A stretch of DNA of 64,000 nucleotides from Bernardetia sp. MNP-M8 (GTDB lineage: Bacteria; Bacteroidota; Bacteroidia; Cytophagales; Bernardetiaceae). Under the pieces are notes generated by a model. It made no database searches and had not been told where the DNA came from. It saw only the letters and a program-made list of their open reading frames with translations. A program made the position numbers and the translations under genes. Positions 11,769 through 45,524 of this stretch are shown here, piece by piece. The stretch lies in contig NZ_CP147012.1 of assembly GCF_037126285.1 (NCBI RefSeq), forward strand, positions 3,180,676 through 3,244,675, given 5' to 3'. Position 1 is the first letter of the stretch. Each line of letters begins with the position of its first letter.

Positions 11769-12623
11769 TTATGTGTATAAAAATTCAATTTCTTTATTCT
11801 CAAAATAGCTAATTTTTCCATTTTGACCTGCTACCTCTAAGGCTAGTTTTCCTTCTGGGTTGATTCCCAAAATTTGTCCTGTAATTTTCTGATTTTTGAT
11901 TTTATCTTTATAATAATGCCATTCTTGATATCGAAAAAGATGAGAAAGATAATCAGCTCTAAGTATTTCTTTTTTTCCTGCCCTTAATTGCAAATAACGT
12001 TTTTCTATAAAAAATAGAATTTCAGTTAAAATATTTTCTTTATTCCATTCTTTTCCAGTTAGTTCCTGTAATGAAACAGCTCTATTGGTAGTGTCATTTT
12101 TATCAAAAATCTGATTGATATTAATTCCAATTCCTACAATACTTTGATTTATTGATTGTGAATTGATTTGATTTTCTATCAAAATCCCTCCAATTTTTTG
12201 GTCTTTGTATTCATTCCCAACTTGATGATTTATAAAAATATCATTTGTCCATTTTATCTGAAAAGAATCAGCAATATCTGGATAATTAGTTTTCATAACT
12301 TCCTCTAGCGCATCACGAACACCCAACGAAACAGCGATGGTAATCCAAAAAGATTCTTTTGGAGATAAAAAAGTAGGAGTAAGCAAAATAGAAAAAGTAA
12401 GATTTTGATTTTCTTGTGCTGTCCAACTATTTCCTCGTTGTCCTTTTCCTTGTGTTTGATGATTTGTCCAAAGAAGCGTTCCTTCAAAAAGTGTATTTTG
12501 TGCTTTTTTTTTCTGTTCGGTAGTATGAAAAGCCAAACTCTCGTTGGTAGACTGACAGCTTGGCAGATAAATTTGATTTTGTCCTATAAAAAGTCCCTTT
12601 GTATGAATTTTGTAATTGCTCAT
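11769..12623 (-). CDS. birA: biotin--[acetyl-CoA-carboxylase] ligase
   Basis: GTLLWTNHQTQGKGQRGNSWTAQENQNLTFSILLTP matches the BirA biotin-binding loop (GRGRRGR.W) and the following motif. Confidence 0.8.
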   Translation of the reverse strand: MSNYKIHTKGLFIGQNQIYLPSCQSTNESLAFHTTEQKKKAQNTLFEGTLLWTNHQTQGKGQRGNSWTAQENQNLTFSILLTPTFLSPKESFWITIAVSLGVRDALEEVMKTNYPDIADSFQIKWTNDIFINHQVGNEYKDQKIGGILIENQINSQSINQSIVGIGININQIFDKNDTTNRAVSLQELTGKEWNKENILTEILFFIEKRYLQLRAGKKEILRADYLSHLFRYQEWHYYKDKIKNQKITGQILGINPEGKLALEVAGQNGKISYFENKEIEFLYT

Positions 12624-12876
12624 TGTAAATGAATATTTTGACTATAATTTACTTATTAATACTGTATCTTTGTAGTTAAACTTTTGGCTACAGTATAGTT
12701 TTTAGATACTATAAATTTGATTTTATCTCAAAATTGGAACAAAATCTTTATCCTACTTGTAATTCAAGAGTGCAAATTCGTTAATAAGTAAAAATAAATA
12801 AAATCAAAATTATGAAAGCTGCTTAAAAAATAATCGCTTTCCTCTAATTTTTGAATAAAAATACTAAATCTATACT

Positions 12877-13251
12877 ATGACTCAAAAACAGTCTGTTACT
12901 TCACAAATGCTTTCTCAAGCTGTAGTGGCTGGTCTTCAAGACCGAAAAGGAAAATCAATTACTCTTCTTGACCTTCGTGATGTCAAAAATTCTATTGCAG
13001 ATTATTTTATTATCTGTACTGGAACTTCTGATACGCACGTAGATGCATTAAAAAGCTCGGTAGAAGTAGAAACCTACAAACAATATAAACAAGACCCTTG
13101 GCACGTAGAAGGTAGAGAAAATCGTCAATGGATTTTGATGGATTATGTAGATGTTGTAGTTCATATTTTTCAAGCTGAAAAAAGAGATCGATTTGGCTTA
13201 GAAGAACTTTGGGGAGATGCAAAAATTACTCAAATTCCTGATTTGGATTAG
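12877..13251 (+). CDS. rsfS: ribosome silencing factor RsfS (Iojap-like)
   Basis: DYFIICTGTSDTHVDAL....WILMDYVDVVVHIF is the RsfS signature, and the length of about 120 aa fits. Confidence 0.85.
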   Translation: MTQKQSVTSQMLSQAVVAGLQDRKGKSITLLDLRDVKNSIADYFIICTGTSDTHVDALKSSVEVETYKQYKQDPWHVEGRENRQWILMDYVDVVVHIFQAEKRDRFGLEELWGDAKITQIPDLD

Positions 13252-24754: not shown

Positions 24755-27700
24755 ATGATAAATAGAGTATATTATATTAATTTTTTTACAGCTATTATAT
24801 TGTACTGCTGTCTGTCTGTAGTTTCTTATGCACAGCCACAGCTCAATACGACTGCCCAACAAGGACTTTTGCCTGATAAAAGTCTTACTCAATATATTCT
24901 TACCAACTGGACAACAGCCGAAGGATTGCCTTCAAATACAACAAATTACATTATTCAAGATGATATAGGTTTTATTTGGGTAACAGGATATGATGGACTA
25001 GTCAAGTTTGATGGCGCAAACTTTCAGACTTATACTAACTCTACTAATCCTGAATTTAATACCAATAGTTTTACAGCAATAGAAGTAGAATCAAATGAAA
25101 GTGGCAAAGAATCAGAAATTTGGATAGGCTCAGAAGGAAATGGACTTGTACACTATAAAAACCGTCAAATTGAATCTTTATTTGATACTTTATCCGTACG
25201 TATAGAAGCTATTTTTATAGAGAAAAGTAGAAATAATAAACCCAAACGAATTTGGTTAGGAACAAGAGGGAAAGGAATTTTTTTTGTAGAAAATGAAAAG
25301 TTAATAAAATGGGAAGGAATAACAGATGTAACAGGAGTTGTAACAGACTATAAGAATACTACTGTCAAAAAAATTGAAGGTGATCAACAAGGAAATATCT
25401 ATTTTGCCATTACTGGAGTAGGGTTAGTTCATTTTGATGGTAAAAAAGTAAAAGAATTTACTCAAAAAGAGGGTTTACCTACCAATAATGTCACTGAAAT
25501 TTTATACGAAGAAAATTATAAAAATCCGAAATTGTATATCGGAACGACCGAAGGAATTGCTATTATAGAAAATAACCAAGTCGAAACACTAGAAATTGCT
25601 TCTCAAGATTATATCAATTCTATGTATATAGATAATTTTAGTAGCCTTTGGATAGGAACGAATAATGGATTAATTAGAGTTACCCAAGATGAAAAAATAG
25701 AGAGATTGAATGAAGAAAATGGATTGCCTCATAATATTGTACGCAAAGTTATTCAGGATAAAGAAAAAAATATTTGGCTTACTTGTTACAAAGGAGGAAT
25801 TGTTCAACTTAAACAAGGAAAGTTTACAAACTATACCACAGAGGATGGATTTACGAATAACTCTATAAATGTATTAGAAGTTTTTGACGAAAATACTATT
25901 CTAGTAGGAGCAGACTTTCCACAACTCAATCTTATTCATAAAGGCAATGCTATGGCTTTTAAGTATCCTATCAAAAACCTAAAAGCTCGTATAAAGGCAA
26001 TTCAAAAGGCGCATGATGGTTCTGTTTGGATAGGTTCTGATAACGGAGTTGTGCAACTTCAAAAATTTGATCCATTAGCCAAAATACCCTATACAAAAGA
26101 AGTATTTTACAATGAAAAAAATGGACTTTCAAGTAATATTATCAGAACTATTTTTGAAGATACAAATCATAATATATGGATAGGAACACGAACAGGAGGT
26201 ATTACGATAATTTCTCCATCAGGTGAAATTTCTTATCACAATACAGAAACAGGTTTTCCTTCCAATTTTATAATGTCCATCAACCAAGATAAAGACGGAA
26301 TTATTTGGGTAGGAACAAATAATGCAGGTATCATAAAATTAAAAGAAAAAAAGCAAATAGAGCATCTTCTAACCGAACAAGGATTAGTGAGTGAACTTAT
26401 CTTTAGCACCTATATTGATGAAGAAAATACTGTTTGGGCAACATCTACACAAGGTATTAGTAAAATAAAAAACGGTAAGTTTACAAATTTTACTGCCAAA
26501 AATGGACTTCCTTTTTCAAGTGTTTTTGATATCTTAGAAGATAAATCTGGTAACTTTTGGTGTACAACAAGTCAAGGGGTTTTCGTAATTGCCAAAAAAG
26601 ACTTTGAAAAAATTACTACAGGAGAAATTGATAAACTTCCATTCGAACTTTTTAATAAAAGTGATGGAATGAAAGAAAATCAATGCTCGGGAGCTGCATT
26701 TTCATTAAAAACTTCAGATGAACATTTTTGGTTTCCTACAGTGGGTGGGGTTGCTTCTATTGACCCAAGTTCTATTCCGATGAATCAAACACCTCCTAAT
26801 ATAGTTATCAATAAAATGACGGTAGATGGAAAATCTATAGTCAATAACAAAGAACTTATCATACTTCCAGCAGGTACACAACGTATTATTTTTGACTATT
26901 CAGGACTTAGTTTTGTACGTCCTTCTGATGTAAAATTTAGATATAAAATGGAAGGTGTAGATAAAGATTGGATTTTAGCAGAAGAAGAAAGAAAAGCTAC
27001 TTATACAAGTCTTCCTCCTAAAAAATATACTTTTAAAGTAGAAGCATATAATGAAGAGGGACTAAAAAGTGAGGAAGTAGCTTCTCTTAGATTCGAAATA
27101 AAACCTCTGTTATATCAAACTATAACCTTTAAAATAGCTATATTTGTTCTGTTCATTCTTATTTTATATTTTGTTTATAGATGGAGAGTACAACGAATAG
27201 AAATAAGAAATCAAAAACTAGAAAAAACTGTAGAACAACGAACGGCTGAAATCAACCAACAAAAAGAGGAAATACAAGTCCAACACGAAAGGTTAGAAAG
27301 CTCATATAAGAATATTGATTTAGTAAGTAAAATAGGACAACAAGTTACAGCAGAACTAGACATCGAAATCATAATACAAACTATTTATACACAAGTAACT
27401 AACCTAATGCCTACTGATGGTTTTGGAATTGGTATTTATAATGAATTCAATAATACATTAGACTTTAAATATTATATAGAAAAAGGAGAGTTACAACCTA
27501 GCTCGTCAGATTCTTTGGAAGATAATACACTTTTGTCTGTAAAATCTTTTAATGAAAAAGAAGAGATTTGGATAAATGACATGGAGAGTAAGTACAAGCA
27601 TTATAAAGAAATCAAAGAAATTAGACAAGACGATTTGACGAGTTCTTTAATCTATGTTCCTTTATTTCTTAATAGCAAACCAGCAGGAGTTCTTACTGTA

Positions 27701-28585
27701 CAAAGTTTTGAGAAAAACGCATACACTCCAGAATCTGTTTCTGTTTTGAGAGCTTTAGCATCTTATATTACTATTGCACTTTCGAACGCAAAATCTTTTT
27801 CTACTATCCAAAAAAAGAATCAAGAAATTACTGACAGCATTCGTTATGCTCAAACAATCCAACACGCAGTTTTACCTGCAAAAGAAAAATTAGACGAAAT
27901 TTTGGGTGCAAATTTTCTTATTTATATGCCAAAAGATGTAGTAAGTGGTGATTTTTACTGGCTAAGTCATACACCTAGAGGTATCTATTTAGTTGTCTCA
28001 GATTGTACAGGACATGGCGTTCCAGGGGCATTTATGGCAATGATAGGCATTTCAGTTTTTAATGAACTCATCAATCTTCAAAAGATAGAAGAACCTGTCG
28101 ATATTTTAGAGAAATTAGACCAAGAAATACAAATTGCTCTACAACAACAACAAGCAAAAAATAGCGATGGAATGGATTTAGTGCTTTGTAGAATAGAGAA
28201 TCTGCAAAATGATGGAAAAACAAAAGTTACTTTTGCAGGCGCAAAAAATAGTTTATTTTATACCAAGACCGATAAAATAAAAAGACTAAAAGGAAGCAGA
28301 CGTTCTATTGGAGGACGAAGAAACAAAAGCAATAAAAGACCTTTCACTCAAACTTCCTTAGAATTAGAAAAAGGAGAAATATTATATTTAACAACAGATG
28401 GATATATCGATCAAAATGCTCCCAATGAACAACGCATAGGTACTCAAGCATTTATGGAAAGATTAGAGAGTCTACAACATTTACCTCTATCAGAACAGAA
28501 AGAAGTATTACTAGAAACCTTAAAAGATTTTCAAAAAAATGCACCTCAGAGAGATGATATAGCTATTATAGGAGTGAAAATATAA
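24755..28585 (+). CDS. large sensor: signal peptide, two-component-regulator beta-propeller repeats, Y_Y_Y, TM, coiled coil, GAF, and a PP2C/SpoIIE-type Ser/Thr phosphatase
   Basis: Repeated W[IL]GT..GL propeller blades, a TM at about aa 790, and the GAF-like middle region. The C-terminal PP2C block VVSGDFYWL...VSDCTGHGVPGAFM...DGMDLVLCRIE...TDGYIDQ is also present. It is a paralog of 61439..64000 (-). Confidence 0.8.
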   Translation: MINRVYYINFFTAIILYCCLSVVSYAQPQLNTTAQQGLLPDKSLTQYILTNWTTAEGLPSNTTNYIIQDDIGFIWVTGYDGLVKFDGANFQTYTNSTNPEFNTNSFTAIEVESNESGKESEIWIGSEGNGLVHYKNRQIESLFDTLSVRIEAIFIEKSRNNKPKRIWLGTRGKGIFFVENEKLIKWEGITDVTGVVTDYKNTTVKKIEGDQQGNIYFAITGVGLVHFDGKKVKEFTQKEGLPTNNVTEILYEENYKNPKLYIGTTEGIAIIENNQVETLEIASQDYINSMYIDNFSSLWIGTNNGLIRVTQDEKIERLNEENGLPHNIVRKVIQDKEKNIWLTCYKGGIVQLKQGKFTNYTTEDGFTNNSINVLEVFDENTILVGADFPQLNLIHKGNAMAFKYPIKNLKARIKAIQKAHDGSVWIGSDNGVVQLQKFDPLAKIPYTKEVFYNEKNGLSSNIIRTIFEDTNHNIWIGTRTGGITIISPSGEISYHNTETGFPSNFIMSINQDKDGIIWVGTNNAGIIKLKEKKQIEHLLTEQGLVSELIFSTYIDEENTVWATSTQGISKIKNGKFTNFTAKNGLPFSSVFDILEDKSGNFWCTTSQGVFVIAKKDFEKITTGEIDKLPFELFNKSDGMKENQCSGAAFSLKTSDEHFWFPTVGGVASIDPSSIPMNQTPPNIVINKMTVDGKSIVNNKELIILPAGTQRIIFDYSGLSFVRPSDVKFRYKMEGVDKDWILAEEERKATYTSLPPKKYTFKVEAYNEEGLKSEEVASLRFEIKPLLYQTITFKIAIFVLFILILYFVYRWRVQRIEIRNQKLEKTVEQRTAEINQQKEEIQVQHERLESSYKNIDLVSKIGQQVTAELDIEIIIQTIYTQVTNLMPTDGFGIGIYNEFNNTLDFKYYIEKGELQPSSSDSLEDNTLLSVKSFNEKEEIWINDMESKYKHYKEIKEIRQDDLTSSLIYVPLFLNSKPAGVLTVQSFEKNAYTPESVSVLRALASYITIALSNAKSFSTIQKKNQEITDSIRYAQTIQHAVLPAKEKLDEILGANFLIYMPKDVVSGDFYWLSHTPRGIYLVVSDCTGHGVPGAFMAMIGISVFNELINLQKIEEPVDILEKLDQEIQIALQQQQAKNSDGMDLVLCRIENLQNDGKTKVTFAGAKNSLFYTKTDKIKRLKGSRRSIGGRRNKSNKRPFTQTSLELEKGEILYLTTDGYIDQNAPNEQRIGTQAFMERLESLQHLPLSEQKEVLLETLKDFQKNAPQRDDIAIIGVKI

Positions 28586-30393: not shown

Positions 30394-30766
30394 AAGGACA
30401 GGAGTTTAGGAAATTACGACCTATTAAAGCAGCGAAGCTAATTAAAAATTACAAATTTAATTCATTTATTATCAGCCAATTGTATGTTTGAAAATAGCAG
30501 CTTATTTAACTCTTCTTCCTTAGTCAAACAAATAGAACTAATTTTTTTAAATTAAAACAAAAATGCTGCTACTTTAAAAAAAATGAAACCTTTATTTATA
30601 AAGTAGCGTTAAGGAATATAAATATCTTATTGTATTTTTTACACTAACTAGGCTTATCCTTTGTAAAATTCTGATTTATTCTTATTTTGAGGAAGAATTT
30701 TATCACAAAGTATTCTATTCATAACCATCAAATTTATCTATCATTTTAACTTAACACCAATAACTT

Positions 30767-33235
30767 ATGTCTGACGTAAACCGAGAACGAGATTTAGTTT
30801 TAGCTCCTAATGAATACGCTTTTATTTCTGACCAAACAAAAGGAAACATAAATGTTTATGTAGGTCCTTACAAGACCAGTCTTGCCAATACTGACCGTCC
30901 TGTTATGTTTGACCCTGCTACAAAGCGTTTCGAAAAATGCAATTTAGAGGATTCTATGCGCTCTTTTATTATTGCTCCTGAAGGATGGTATGTAGTATTA
31001 AAAAATCCTTCAAAGGACACAAATCCTCCAAAGATTGGAACAAGTAATAATTTGGCAGAACTCAATGTAGGACGAAAAGTAAATATTGCAGGACCTATTT
31101 CTTTTGCGCTTTGGGCAGGACAAATGGCACGAGTTATTCGTGGGCATAATCTGAGTTCGAATCAATATTTGTTAGTTCGCATTTATGATGAAGAACAGGC
31201 ACGAGCAAATTGGGGAAAATCAGTCATCAAGACAAAAGAAGGAGAAGCAAATGAGGCAAAAGAACTAAACGAAGTAGCAGAAACCCTAACTATGGGACAA
31301 CTTCTGATTATTCGTGGCGATGAAGTTTCATTTTATATTCCACCAACAGGCATCGAAGTAGTCAGAGATGAGTATGCAGACGACGACGAATATGTACGTG
31401 AAGCAGTAACTTTAGAGCGTTTGGAATATTGTATTTTATTGAATGAAGACGGAAACAAACGCTATATTCAAGGACCAAAAGTAGTCTTCCCTGAACCGAC
31501 AGAGGTTTTTATTCAAAAAAATGGAATGCGAAAATTTAAAGCCATCGAACTCAATGAAATGAGTGGACTTTATATAAAAGTAATTGCGCCTTACAAAGAA
31601 GGAAAAAATGAGTACAAAGAAGGCGACGAACTTTTCATTACAGGAAAAGATCAAATGATTTATTATCCTCGTCCAGAACATGCCATTGTTCGTTACGGAA
31701 CAAAAGAACGCCATTATGCCATTGCGATTCCAGCAGGAGAAGGACGTTATTATTTGAATAGAAAAACAGGAACAGTTGCCCTTATGAAGGGTGCAGCAAT
31801 GTTTTTACCTGACCCTAGAGAATTTGTTTTGGTGCGTCGTGTACTTTCCAAAAAACAAACTTCGCTATGGTTTCCAAATAATAATGAAGCCTTAGAATAT
31901 AATTTAGCCTTACAAAATATTGCCAAAAATGATAATTTTGTAACTGATTTTGAAGTTCAAGAACAAAATCAAGCTCCTCAACAGTCTCAACAACTACGTA
32001 AGAAAGCAAAAATTTCAGATGAAATGGTAGGTGATGAGTTTAATCGTGATAATACGCACACGCCACCTCGCATGATTACATTAGATACAAAATATGAAGG
32101 AGCTGTTACGATTGCACCTTGGACAGGTTATGCTGTTTTGGTGGTCAGCAAGACTGGAAAACGAAAGGTTATTGAAGGTCCTCAATCCTATTTATTAGAA
32201 TATGATGAAGAATTGGAAGGAATTGAACTTTCAACAGGAACTCCAAAAACGACAGATAATTCTATTAAAACTGTTTATTTGAGAGTTTTGTACAATAAAG
32301 TTTCTGATGAAATAATGGCAGAATCAGCAGATTATACACAAGTAAGAATTCATCTTTCGTATCGTGTCAATTTTGAAGGAAGTTCGGATAAATGGTTCAA
32401 TGTAGAAAATTATGTCAAATTTTTGACAGACCACATGCGTTCGTATATTCGAAATACAGTCAGAAGATACCCAATTATGGAATTTTATGCCAATGGAATT
32501 ACTATTTTGAGAGATGCTATTTTGGGAGAATCAGATAAGAAAACAGGAAAACGAACAGGACGACTTTTTGAAGAAAATGGAATGCGTATTTATGACGTAG
32601 AAATTTTGGATATAAGTTTGGGAGATGCAAACATTGAAAATTTATTGATTTCTTCGCAGCAAGATACTGTTATGCAAACGTTGCGTATCAATTCTGAAAA
32701 AAGAAAACTAGAATTTACACAAGAAAGCGAAGCCATTACAAGACAAATTGCTGCTACACAATCCGAAACAAAACAGACCATTTATGAGCTTCAAAAACAA
32801 GAAACTCAAAAACTCTTAGAAGTAACTCTTACTAAAATTGAAAGCGAAATAATTAGTAAAGAACGTCATTTACAAGCACGATTAGACGAACAAAAATCAC
32901 TTAATCAAATCAATGATGACGAGCTTTCAAGACAAAAAGCTGTCAATAATGTAGAGTTAGAAAAAGCACAAAAAGAATTAGAACAGTTTATTTTGGAAGA
33001 GCAAACCGAAGTAGAAGCCGTTGTAGCAAAAGCAAAAGCCGTTTCTCCAGATTTGATTGCAGCTTTACAATCTTTCTCTGATAAAGAATTGGCTCAAAAA
33101 ATGGCAGATTCTATGGCTCCATTGGCTATTTTGGGAGGAAAATCAATCGCTGATGTCTTTGGAAATCTTTTGAAAGGAACGCAATTAAGTAGCGTTTTGA
33201 GTGGATTGAAATTGCCTGAGAATACGGAAGAGTAA
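30767..33235 (+). CDS. major vault protein (MVP) homolog
   Basis: The N-terminus LVLAPNEYAFISDQTKGNINVYVGPYKTSLANTDRPVMFDP parallels eukaryotic MVP [41 protein letters not shown]. Repeated units of about 55 aa (GD/GE..W.. beta repeats), a shoulder-like region, and a C-terminal coiled coil rich in Q/E/K (cap-helix-like). The 822 aa length is close to the 860-890 aa of eukaryotic MVPs. Confidence 0.7.
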   Translation: MSDVNRERDLVLAPNEYAFISDQTKGNINVYVGPYKTSLANTDRPVMFDPATKRFEKCNLEDSMRSFIIAPEGWYVVLKNPSKDTNPPKIGTSNNLAELNVGRKVNIAGPISFALWAGQMARVIRGHNLSSNQYLLVRIYDEEQARANWGKSVIKTKEGEANEAKELNEVAETLTMGQLLIIRGDEVSFYIPPTGIEVVRDEYADDDEYVREAVTLERLEYCILLNEDGNKRYIQGPKVVFPEPTEVFIQKNGMRKFKAIELNEMSGLYIKVIAPYKEGKNEYKEGDELFITGKDQMIYYPRPEHAIVRYGTKERHYAIAIPAGEGRYYLNRKTGTVALMKGAAMFLPDPREFVLVRRVLSKKQTSLWFPNNNEALEYNLALQNIAKNDNFVTDFEVQEQNQAPQQSQQLRKKAKISDEMVGDEFNRDNTHTPPRMITLDTKYEGAVTIAPWTGYAVLVVSKTGKRKVIEGPQSYLLEYDEELEGIELSTGTPKTTDNSIKTVYLRVLYNKVSDEIMAESADYTQVRIHLSYRVNFEGSSDKWFNVENYVKFLTDHMRSYIRNTVRRYPIMEFYANGITILRDAILGESDKKTGKRTGRLFEENGMRIYDVEILDISLGDANIENLLISSQQDTVMQTLRINSEKRKLEFTQESEAITRQIAATQSETKQTIYELQKQETQKLLEVTLTKIESEIISKERHLQARLDEQKSLNQINDDELSRQKAVNNVELEKAQKELEQFILEEQTEVEAVVAKAKAVSPDLIAALQSFSDKELAQKMADSMAPLAILGGKSIADVFGNLLKGTQLSSVLSGLKLPENTEE

Positions 33236-33259
33236 TTTTTAATATTTATTAATTTCTAT

Positions 33260-33302
33260 AAAACCATATTTGATTTTTGTCAGATGTGGTTTTATTATTT
33301 TT
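33260..33302 (+). terminator. rho-independent terminator after the MVP-like gene
   Basis: aaaaccatatttgatttttgtcagatgtggttttattattttt is a 10-bp stem (one mismatch) followed by a T-run. Confidence 0.55.
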
Positions 33303-33325
33303 AATCAAAAAAAACATTATACTTT

Positions 33326-34354
33326 ATGGAATTACAAGAAAATATTAACATTTTGACAAAAGATTTTAACTTAGATGAAATCACTCTTTTGGGTGTTCGT
33401 CTTAATCAAAATAGCAATATATTATTAGATAAACTATCTATAACAGAAAAAGAGATTACTGGGGATGGTTGGGTTAATACACACAATAACGATTTTTATT
33501 GTTATAGAACATCAGATAATAAGATTGTAGAATTTTTGATTAGAAAAGAAGGTTTAGATGCTTTGAAAATAACAGAGGCACAAGATATTGAGCGTTTATT
33601 TGGCAAAGCAGATTCTATAGAAAAGAAATATAGTTCGCATTATTACTTTTACTCTGATAAAAACTTAGTTGTTTCTTGGAATGATGCAAATAAAAAAATA
33701 TTGGGTATCTATATTGGAAATACTAGAATTACTCCTACATTTTATACAGTAAAAGATTTTTTAGATATTTATCTCCAATTTGTAAATCTAGTTCCAAATC
33801 GATCAGATTGGAATGAAGAAGCTACTTCTTCTCATCCTCCAGAACTTTATAGATTACAACAACTCAAATCTTTAATGAAAGCATTTGATATAGGAGAAGA
33901 TGTATCGAAAAATTTTAAAAACGGCAAATTTTTGAGAAATAGAAAGCCCTTTGAGTATAAACTAATTAATAACGATGTAGAAAGGTATGTTGATAATATA
34001 GAATCACAAAGCTATAAAAAACGAAAAAAAGAGCAATTAGAAGACTACAAAATGCAATGGGGAAGTTCTTTGTCATTTACGTTTACCAAATTTTTAGAAG
34101 TAATAGAACGAGCAGATAACCTTTTAAAAATTAATAGTGGAGTTATGGAAGCCAGTACACTTATGGGAGGTTATACTGTAAATAAAGTATGGGATTTAGC
34201 TCAAAGCATAGATAAAGAAAAGCTAGATGAAATAAAAGAATTATTATATTCTATGATAGACCCACAAGAAAAATCATTTTCAAGAAAGTTGTTGATAGAA
34301 AAGTATAATTTTCCAGATGTAGATTTAGAAGCTGTTGATATAGAATGGTACTAA
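33326..34354 (+). CDS. hypothetical cytoplasmic protein immediately downstream of the MVP-like gene
   Basis: A clean 342-aa ORF with no signal peptide and no recognisable domain. Confidence 0.45.
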   Translation: MELQENINILTKDFNLDEITLLGVRLNQNSNILLDKLSITEKEITGDGWVNTHNNDFYCYRTSDNKIVEFLIRKEGLDALKITEAQDIERLFGKADSIEKKYSSHYYFYSDKNLVVSWNDANKKILGIYIGNTRITPTFYTVKDFLDIYLQFVNLVPNRSDWNEEATSSHPPELYRLQQLKSLMKAFDIGEDVSKNFKNGKFLRNRKPFEYKLINNDVERYVDNIESQSYKKRKKEQLEDYKMQWGSSLSFTFTKFLEVIERADNLLKINSGVMEASTLMGGYTVNKVWDLAQSIDKEKLDEIKELLYSMIDPQEKSFSRKLLIEKYNFPDVDLEAVDIEWY

Positions 34355-44152: not shown

Positions 44153-44348
44153 TATTCGTTGTTGGTGTCGCTACGCTAAAACACCAACAACAGCATAATA
44201 AACCAACTATTCAACACACAACCTGCAACAATTGAAAATTTTAGGAAGTAAATACTTTGTTGAAAATGACTAAATTTTCATTAAAATGCCTTTTTTGTGA
44301 AACAAAAAATTATCTATTACGTTCATCTGTTCTAAATACTTTTTATAA

Positions 44349-45524
44349 ATGAAAAAAAAATCACTTAAAAGGTCTGAAAAAACCTTTAAACAAAAATTGA
44401 AAATGTTTTTCAAACGAACTTTCTATACTCTTTTAGTTTTAACTATTATGCTTACAATTGCTACAAATCTTATTTTACGACAAGACAAATTTGGAAAACT
44501 TCCTGATGGAGAGCGTTTGGAACGCATCAAAAAATCGCCTAATTACAAGGATGGAGCTTTTCAAAATATTCATCATACCCCAGACCTTAGTGAAGATGCC
44601 AATTATTATACAGTTTTGAAAGAATTTGCTTTTGGAGATAAAAGCCGTGTTTCACCTGTCGATAAAATTCCTTCTACCAAAATTGATTTATTTGCTTTAG
44701 ATGCAACTGAAAATGTTTTAATTTGGTTTGGGCATTCGTCTTATTTTATGCAGCTTGACGGAAAAACGATTTTAGTTGATCCTGTTTTTAGTGGTTCGGC
44801 TTCTCCTTTTTCATTTACAGTAAAGGCTTTTAATGGAACAGATGCTTACACAACTGATGATATTCCAGAAATAGATTATCTCTTTATTTCGCATGACCAT
44901 TGGGATCATGTAGATTATGAAACGCTTTTAAAATTAAAACCAAAAATCAAGAATGTATTTTGTGGTTTAGGTGTGGGAGCACATTTTGAACATTGGGGAT
45001 TTGATTTGAATAAAATTCATGAAGAAGATTGGAATACAGAAATTAAGTTAGATGACAATTTTGAAGTTCATGTTATTCCAACTCGTCATTTTTCTGGTCG
45101 TGGTTTTAAGCGTAATCAAGCTCTTTGGGCTTCGTATGTTTTGAAAACGCCTACCATGCAAATTTATATTGGTGGAGATAGTGGTTATGATACACATTTC
45201 AAAGAAATGGGCGATAAATTCGGAGTTTTTGATTTGGTAATCTTAGAAAATGGACAATATGATAAAAGTTGGAAATACATTCATATGATGCCTGAGGAGG
45301 TCTTAAAAGCTGCTAAAGATTTGAATGCAAAACGTTTATTTCCTGTTCACTCTTCCAAATTTGCTCTTGCTAATCATGCTTGGGACGAACCTCTAACAAA
45401 AGTTTCCACACTGAATCAAAGTTTAGAAAAACCATTTTCTTTAGTAACTCCAATTATTGGAGAGAAAGTAGAAATTCAAAATAGCAATCAACCTTTTGAA
45501 AATTGGTGGAAAGGACTGCAATAA
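44349..45524 (+). CDS. MBL-fold metallo-hydrolase (NAPE-PLD-like)
   Basis: N-terminal TM plus ISHDHWDH metal-binding motif. Confidence 0.7.
   Translation: MKKKSLKRSEKTFKQKLKMFFKRTFYTLLVLTIMLTIATNLILRQDKFGKLPDGERLERIKKSPNYKDGAFQNIHHTPDLSEDANYYTVLKEFAFGDKSRVSPVDKIPSTKIDLFALDATENVLIWFGHSSYFMQLDGKTILVDPVFSGSASPFSFTVKAFNGTDAYTTDDIPEIDYLFISHDHWDHVDYETLLKLKPKIKNVFCGLGVGAHFEHWGFDLNKIHEEDWNTEIKLDDNFEVHVIPTRHFSGRGFKRNQALWASYVLKTPTMQIYIGGDSGYDTHFKEMGDKFGVFDLVILENGQYDKSWKYIHMMPEEVLKAAKDLNAKRLFPVHSSKFALANHAWDEPLTKVSTLNQSLEKPFSLVTPIIGEKVEIQNSNQPFENWWKGLQ

Follow-up and report, generated by a model that had tools for sequence, protein, structure and literature searches.

A chromosomal gene of Bernardetia sp. 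MNP-M8 was found to encode a full-length protein that belongs to the major vault protein (MVP) family. The gene lies at 30767..33235 (+ strand) of a 64,000-nt stretch of contig NZ_CP147012.1 (positions 3,180,676 to 3,244,675; this whole stretch is referred to as the window, and coordinates are those of the window unless another record is named). It begins with an ATG, has an in-frame TAA just 5' of it at 30761, and encodes a product of 822 aa. An open reading frame (ORF) for a 342-aa protein adjoins its 3' side (33326..34354, + strand). Both ORFs have exactly the positions and lengths given in the original prediction, a reading of the DNA alone, which took the product for a bacterial homolog of MVP carrying repeats, a shoulder and a cap-helix and suggested a partner or cargo gene downstream and a small RNA upstream. 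Membership of the 822-aa product in the MVP family is regarded as practically certain, and the product is neither a generic SPFH scaffold nor a member of another beta-repeat family. The favoured account as a whole, namely an MVP-family protein that self-assembles into a cage, is expressed from a single-gene unit of extracytoplasmic function (ECF) type and is unrelated to the 342-aa gene beside it, is considered probable.

Sequence evidence for an MVP-family protein

Against Pfam, aa 509-620 matched MVP_shoulder (PF11978; E 3.6e-32; 111 bits, the cut-off being 25) over profile positions 2-118 of 118, and aa 462-505 matched Vault_3 (E 6e-7; 29.9 bits, the cut-off being 28.8). Sequence searches did not detect PF01505, PF17794 or PF17796 in the protein. 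Major vault proteins were the sole significant matches when the PDB was searched with the single sequence (E 1.5e-16). With profiles, PDB MVP chains were matched at E 1.4e-24 (28 sequences) and 5.9e-42 (a diverse profile of 78 sequences; rat MVP). The profile alignments were co-linear, pairing aa 229-352 with rat MVP 294-409 in the middle repeats and aa 456-771 with rat MVP 458-802, which comprises repeat 9, the shoulder and the cap-helix. Significant homology to MVP was confined to aa 215-350 and aa 456-771. A match of the N-terminus to eukaryotic MVP had been drawn by eye in the original prediction; HMMER placed it in the same register (query 12-50 to rat MVP 10-47), but this segment was not significant on its own (-3.8 to 0.4 bits).

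With regard to solubility, the protein is net acidic and has no hydrophobic segment, the maximum Kyte-Doolittle value over a 19-residue window being 1.18. Hydropathy gave no transmembrane segment or signal peptide, and the hydrophilic N-terminus leads into the beta repeats. Searches of PADLOC and PHROGs returned no match for the 822-aa protein. The assignment to the MVP family follows from the Pfam and PDB profile matches, from the structural model and its Foldseek matches and internal repeats (see below), and from the lack of a hydrophobic segment, with MVP and not an unrelated beta-repeat family giving the best matches throughout the profile searches.

Predicted structure and domain order

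The AlphaFold2 (AF2) model used was built from an alignment of 150 homologs and has a mean predicted local distance difference test score (pLDDT) of 62.7. An earlier model from 28 close homologs (mean pLDDT 50.8) was confident only for the shoulder and helix, with an N-terminal half that could not be interpreted. Foldseek with the 150-homolog model returned 12 vault entries at 6e-26 to 8e-19 and independently found the crystal fragments of murine MVP R1-R7 at 5e-8 to 1.5e-7. A second tier of matches, at ~3e-5 to 1e-3, consisted of flotillin, HflK/C, QmcA, prohibitin, stomatin and erlin. The proposed MVP repeat fold with a cap-helix was thus recovered in the model, in agreement with the Pfam matches to the shoulder and Vault_3.

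From the N-terminus, seven beta-repeat modules, interrupted after the sixth by a linker, are followed by a shoulder of SPFH type, a helix of ~135 residues and, last, a conserved tail. The first six modules occupy aa 8-360 (30788..31846, + strand, as for all segments of the gene that follow) and were delimited by AF2 strands, the Foldseek matches to R1-R7 and HHalign, with approximate bounds at aa 8-60, 61-128, 129-205, 206-260, 261-312 and 313-360 (M1-M6); the beta-rich modules within aa 9-80 were modelled at pLDDT 74-86. They are followed by a variable Q-rich linker, helical and then disordered, at aa 361-433 (31847..32065), which was defined by conservation and pLDDT and shows the lowest conservation of the family (0.6-1.1 bits at 381-420) and a pLDDT of 30-46 over most of aa 391-433. 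The last module, aa 434-508 (32066..32290), is the equivalent of rat R9, as judged by Vault_3 and by its alignment to rat MVP 458-519. The SPFH-like shoulder domain spans aa 509-620 (32291..32626; PF11978, pLDDT mostly 72-89). The single long cap-helix at aa 621-757 (32627..33037) is a continuous AF2 helix of pLDDT 72-87 that aligns to rat 647-802, and its composition, rich in E, Q, K and L, agrees with the Q/E/K-rich C-terminal coiled coil noted at the outset. The protein closes with a helical tail specific to the bacterial clade, AVSPDLIAALQ...MAPLAILGGKS... (aa 758-822 and the stop codon, 33038..33235), which was recognised by family conservation, is conserved in the 150 bacterial homologs and was modelled at a pLDDT below 50. 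Over the family, conservation is highest in the repeat region (aa 8-360 being at the top) and the shoulder, and lowest in the linker and the helix.

Comparison of the modules with one another by HHalign, using the diverse alignment, matched M1 to M6 (E 6e-7) and M3 to M5 (E 2e-5). Two interleaved repeat classes were seen, one made up of M1, M4, M6 and M7 (best E 6e-7) and one of M2, M3 and M5 (best E 2e-5), and self-comparison of the N-terminal half with a shallow alignment gave a weak repeat signal (E 0.018). The pattern suggests that the repeat stack may have grown through duplication of a two-module unit.

Comparison with known systems and earlier work

The protein resembles eukaryotic MVP (rat 4V60/4HL8, human 9BW5, rabbit 9Z4W) in its co-linear beta-repeat stack, SPFH shoulder and long cap-helix. 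It differs in having ~18-20% identity to animal MVPs, ~7 modules and a linker in place of nine repeats, a tail unrelated to the cap-ring, and replacements at most residues of the nucleotide pocket described for human MVP. Its assembly is a prediction, and no TEP1, PARP4 or vault RNA was evident nearby: the window held no vault or Y RNA, and no neighbour of any kind was conserved among 80 loci, for which all ORFs up to 10 kb from the MVP-like gene were clustered. These minor vault components (TEP1/TROVE, PARP4 and vault RNA) are not universal among eukaryotes.

The canonical SPFH/Band-7 cage proteins (HflK/C, QmcA, stomatin, flotillin, prohibitin and erlin) likewise have an SPFH domain followed by a long helix, which in these proteins drives the formation of a ring or dome, and some members of the MVP-like family match Pfam Band_7. 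In contrast to them, the 822-aa protein lacks a membrane anchor, carries a repeat stack of ~500 aa at its N-terminus and scores ~20 orders of magnitude weaker to them than to MVP. The Asgard archaeal MVP homologues are, like it, prokaryotic proteins with repeats, shoulder and cap-helix by structure modelling, but they have ~5 repeats and group in part with eukaryotes, whereas the bacterial clade is longer and far more widespread (PMC12962969).

A database record identical to the 822-aa product over its entire length (100%) is named 'hypothetical protein' of Bernardetia sp. MNP-M8, and Bernardetia litoralis DSM 6794 (a species formerly placed in Flexibacter) has a 'Shoulder domain protein' (P0010) that is 94% identical over the full length. 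Protein A1ZGE7 of Microscilla marina is 66% identical, also over the full length, and the JGI annotation calls many relatives 'major vault protein'. Putative bacterial MVPs were listed by Daly et al. (2013; PMC3762200), among them Flexibacter litoralis I4AHY9, Microscilla marina A1ZGE7 and Saprospira grandis H6L4P8 together with myxobacterial and Herpetosiphon proteins; they were predicted to fold and dock like MVP, with favourable pairwise docking for the F. litoralis ortholog. The same bacterial clade, including the Microscilla protein, was analysed in a preprint by Sokolskyi (2019), and in a further preprint bacterial MVPs average 822 aa in length and two gut-phage copies are reported (Santos et al., 2023). 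A recent study of the Asgard homologues still speaks of 'only a few Bacteria' (Nat Microbiol 2026; PMC12962969).

In Bernardetia, the 822-aa protein is the ortholog of the putative bacterial MVPs in the 2013 and 2019 catalogues, and it was already known in silico; it shares their family, clade and length class and differs essentially only in the Bernardetia strain. The statement that bacterial MVPs are uncharacterised holds in so far as no experimental work on any bacterial MVP homolog was found in the literature, but they have been described in silico since 2013, with the 94%-identical ortholog named. What is added here is the distribution of the family, its lack of conserved synteny, a promoter motif and the rejection of the neighbouring gene as a partner.

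Distribution of the MVP-like family

When one genome per GTDB species was scanned with a pattern, a relative turned up in at least 234 species-level genomes, and the best 80 of these carriers, from which the identities were taken, encode proteins 57-96% identical over the full length. Going by record titles, which are labels of metagenome-assembled genomes (MAGs) and call for caution, the carriers fall in ~12 phyla: Bacteroidota, Riflebacteria/Ozemobacteraceae, Chloroflexota, Myxococcota, Desulfobacterota and Sericytochromatia, with Vulcanimicrobiota, Planctomycetota, Gemmatimonadota, Synergistia, Moduliflexus and one Bacillota MAG among the further labels. At 57-61%, identity to other phyla hardly differs from that to Bacteroidota outside the Cytophagales (57-63%). 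Full-length identity is 57-60% even between such distant phyla as Bacteroidota, Chloroflexota, Myxococcota, Riflebacteria and Planctomycetota, and it does not rise within a phylum. This points to very strong constraint or to horizontal spread, or to the two together. Exhaustive searching with HMMER gave 1,320 clusters at the 50% identity level, among them representatives at 42-54%; in 635 clusters E was <= 1e-30. More than 6,600 homologs of the MVP-like protein were found in 5.8 billion proteins. A homolog search with the diverse profile again yielded only proteins 54-73% identical. The family is broader and more conserved than the 'few bacteria' of the literature, and with such counts of genomes (at least 234) and clusters (about 1,320) the description of bacterial MVPs as rare is true in a relative sense only. 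None of the plasmids in PLSDB carries an MVP-like gene. It may also be mentioned that many carriers are filamentous or gliding (Desulfonema, Caldilinea, Saprospiraceae, Aureispira and Moduliflexus), which echoes the correlation with gliding motility reported by Sokolskyi (2019).

Transfer from a eukaryote to a bacterium was raised by Daly et al. (2013; PMC3762200) for cyanobacterial MVPs. A recent event of this kind, or contamination of the assembly, is extremely improbable for the present gene, whose neighbours on the 5.3-Mb Bernardetia chromosome include housekeeping genes such as hslU and one for a tail-specific protease. The surrounding 2-kb windows show no anomaly of composition (GC 0.31-0.33, unremarkable for the locus, and 0.356 for the gene itself), and the protein has just ~18-20% identity to animal MVPs and belongs to a large and coherent bacterial clade.

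Full-length homologs with 42% identity were also found in three 'uncultured phage' genomes of 462-735 kb (LR756500.1, LR756501.1 and LR756503.1). The homolog of LR756501.1 (17179..19608 of that record; 809 aa) matches MVP_shoulder (1e-28), Vault_3 (5e-11) and Band_7 (9e-6) and is flanked by a putative phage metallopeptidase, with a prohead core protease matched weakly and below threshold a few kb downstream. These proteins, like the viral copies reported by Santos et al. (2023), share the full-length bacterial-type architecture with MVP_shoulder and Vault_3; the three huge phages are not mentioned in the accessible part of that preprint on the 'first viral MVPs'. An origin of the Bernardetia gene in a phage, or a function of its product in anti-phage defence, would be in keeping with these huge-phage homologs beside phage protease genes, with the two gut phages reported earlier and with the NADase link that now connects the eukaryotic vault to bacterial immunity in the literature. 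Such an origin or function is nevertheless improbable, as the window copy is chromosomal among housekeeping genes, unlike the viral genes with their phage protease neighbours; there are no PADLOC or PHROGs matches and no defence-island or prophage context in the window, the 80 loci have no conserved neighbours, and the human NAD+ pocket is not conserved.

Proposed transcription unit and upstream spacer

The MVP-like gene is preceded by an AT-rich intergenic spacer of 373 nt (30394..30766), which is flanked by divergent genes. Within it, a putative promoter with the ECF-sigma-like sequence TGAAAC-N17-CGTT was recognised by lineage conservation at 30584..30610 (+ strand), 157 nt upstream of the ATG. 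The motif is invariant in all five Bernardetia-lineage upstream regions, that of B. litoralis included. AAC and CGT are the hallmark of ECF-sigma promoters, and we infer that 30584..30610 is a promoter of this kind. In the other 75 loci the motif was absent upstream of the MVP-like gene (background 0.013 per 350 nt), and the regulation would therefore be lineage-specific and not family-wide. Another copy within the window, at 44298..44323, lies 26 nt upstream of a gene for a protein of metallo-beta-lactamase fold (44349..45524), and the two copies may mark a shared regulon. A second conserved non-coding block, CTTATTGTATTTTTTACACTAA, is located at 30626..30647 (+ strand), is nearly invariant in the five Bernardetia-lineage sequences, in contrast to indels of ~45 nt in the sequence around it, and contains TGTA-N5-TACA; this block of 22 nt could be an operator or leader element.

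It had also been suggested that the spacer could hold a small RNA, which would here be an analogue of vault RNA. The spacer is fairly long and has two conserved blocks, as such a gene might, but no Rfam family (vault and Y RNA included) was found at gathering score anywhere in the window, a permissive Rfam scan of the spacer gave chance-level matches only (E at least 0.36), and the leader folds no better than shuffled sequences (z = +1.3). In an alignment with four relatives, conservation is limited to a promoter-like block of ~65 nt and a region just 5' of the ATG, with a 45-nt indel between them, and with divergent genes on both sides the spacer must in any case hold two promoters. The small RNA was not borne out and is considered highly unlikely; the spacer is an ordinary divergent promoter region.

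At its other end the gene has its own intrinsic terminator, as proposed, at 33258..33303 (+ strand), composed of a hairpin (33258..33295) and a subsequent T-run. The hairpin has a stem of 17 bp and a dG of -20.8 kcal/mol (z = -5.5), which was equalled by 0 of 200 shuffles. A different hairpin occupies the same place in two relatives (loci L001 and L002), and it follows from a comparison of these loci with the window that the function of the terminator is conserved and its sequence is not.

Proposed assembly and its alternatives

In the favoured account the 822-aa protein would self-assemble through lateral contacts of its repeats, shoulder and helix, giving a closed, homo-oligomeric cytoplasmic dome or barrel, and no dedicated partner gene would be needed. 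Because the eukaryotic vault shell needs MVP only and because, to our knowledge, every structurally solved SPFH protein self-assembles, the formation of a homo-oligomeric cage by the 822-aa protein is considered reasonably likely. In Bernardetia, transcription would start at the gene's own ECF-sigma-like promoter (about 30584..30610) and end at 33258..33303, giving a single-gene unit. A promoter of ECF type would make the MVP-like protein the product of a stress regulon, and hence a stress-related role is suspected. The 342-aa gene would be an unrelated, fast-evolving accessory gene in a variable slot.

The main alternative is that the MVP-family protein forms a single half-cage docked on the membrane, for example by its C-terminal helical tail, and not a free closed vault. 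The solved prokaryotic SPFH assemblies (HflK/C and QmcA) are all membrane-bound domes and their fold is matched in the second tier of the Foldseek results, Dictyostelium vaults have been seen bound to membranes by the cap side (PMC13100048), and the bacterial clade has a conserved, partly hydrophobic tail of its own (MAPLAILGGKS). Set against this, the protein has no transmembrane segment or signal peptide, and ~500 aa of MVP repeats take the place of the N-terminal anchor of SPFH proteins. The first repeat, which in eukaryotic vaults forms the waist where one half meets the other, is among the better-conserved parts and has invariant residues. No NfeD or FtsH partner was found adjacent to the gene, in the neighbourhood within the window or among the conserved-neighbour clusters. 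A membrane-docked half-cage is therefore held to be unlikely, though less so than the other alternatives, and a closed cytoplasmic cage is preferred.

Several points weigh against the favoured account. Assembly of the bacterial homologs is a prediction. The AF2 model is only moderately confident, with aa 214-310 at a pLDDT below 50, and the number of repeats (~7, as opposed to 9 in rat) is for that reason uncertain. No similarity to the eukaryotic cap-ring could be detected in the C-terminal tail, and neither single-sequence nor profile searches gave an alignment past rat residue 802-810. The pocket for NAD+/ADP-ribose in human MVP is formed by R504, K506, R507, P508, H509, R511, L517, D521, F522, W545, P565 and K573 (PMC12280208), of which an HMMER alignment found 1 of 12 kept, K506 being K494 here and invariant in 78 of 78 sequences; the other 11 positions are, in order, T, T, T, N, I, R, N, K, V, E and D. 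There are some basic residues elsewhere, and these may form a different pocket. As to the promoter, the motif in the form TGAAAC-N16/17-CGTT has 2 matches in the 64-kb window, each of them intergenic and on the coding strand, and as many or more arise in 9 of 100 shuffles; its assignment to the ECF type stands on a consensus match limited to one genus-level lineage.

A further-reaching proposal, which we regard as tentative, is that bacterial MVPs assemble alone into vault-like cages, as protein organelles built from a single gene and induced in Bernardetia by an ECF stress sigma factor, and that the family, found in at least 12 phyla by record label and in huge phages, is an ancient bacterial invention under strong constraint and with horizontal mobility, of which the eukaryotic vault would be one derived branch. 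If this were true, a culturable bacterium would be a tractable model for the decades-old question of vault function, which has been open since 1986. The cultured B. litoralis DSM 6794, with its 94%-identical copy, could give a simple system in which to ask whether a cage forms without eukaryotic partners and what it contains, and the ECF-like promoter suggests stress conditions under which particles might be sought in Bernardetia. The underlying biology is an attractive and unexploited experimental opportunity, but the literature has offered it since 2013, and this window did not create it. The addition made here is modest, namely a wider and more conserved family, no conserved gene partners and huge phages that carry an MVP-like gene. 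The biology is real and interesting, the proposals of a partner gene and a small RNA are unsupported, and the value of the locus as a discovery is moderate to low.

Downstream gene and genomic context

The 342-aa protein encoded at 33326..34354 had been described as lacking a recognisable domain, and no match was indeed found in Pfam, NCBIfam, PHROGs or PADLOC. Just 11 homologs exist in the 5.8 billion proteins searched. The family is modular, with a conserved C-terminal part of ~210 aa ending in YNFPDVDLEAIDxEW(W/Y) and an N-terminal domain that is exchangeable or absent. The proposal that this gene and the MVP-like gene are a functional pair, a shell plus its cargo or partner, draws on their adjacency, which with a spacer of 90-92 nt is retained in Bernardetia sp. 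ABR2-2B and in L001 and L002. Among the 80 loci, members of the 342-aa family occur near the MVP-like gene only in the window, L001 and L002, and no neighbour family is conserved across lineages, so that the two genes are not co-distributed in other bacteria.

In B. litoralis DSM 6794, whose MVP is 94% identical, the same slot (L081 8590..9398) holds a 116-aa gene and a PIN-domain gene, resembling a toxin-antitoxin pair, followed by leucine-rich repeat (LRR) genes; the 3' flank of the MVP gene thus appears to be a variable insertion spot within the genus. The two most distant relatives of the 342-aa protein (P0130 and P0131) are separated from any MVP gene by more than 8 kb; one comes after a MoxR ATPase, and the other is in what is suggested by its genes to be a mobile or defence-like island. 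The few homologs (11, compared with more than 6,600 of the MVP-like protein), the replacement of the slot in B. litoralis, the location of the distant relatives away from MVP genes, the strong terminator between the two genes and the lower GC of the 342-aa gene (0.278 against 0.356) therefore lead us to reject it as a partner or cargo, and a functional pair is most unlikely. The genes around the distant relative in the island encode DnaB_C, PDDEXK_4, AAA_14, DUF559, HSDR_N_2 and WYL. In L002, an insert of ~600 nt (12560..13140 of that locus) lies between the MVP-like gene and a 208-aa homolog of the 342-aa protein; it holds several GC-rich palindromes, for example GCTTCCTCAGAAGCG / CGCTTCTGAGGAAGC, and may be a small repeat element.

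On the upstream side, the divergent neighbour across the spacer is a 353-aa ORF that had no family match in the profile scan and whose N-terminus looks like a lipoprotein signal peptide. The wider neighbours are ordinary chromosomal genes, including those for a sensor phosphatase, hslU and a tail-specific protease. The sensor (24755..28585, + strand) is a protein of 1276 aa with Reg_prop beta-propeller repeats, Y_Y_Y and GAF domains and a C-terminal SpoIIE/PP2C phosphatase; it sits 2 kb upstream on the same strand as the MVP-like gene, with no evidence for a link between the two. It should also be noted that the upstream neighbours of the MVP-like gene vary among close relatives, with hslU in this position in L001.

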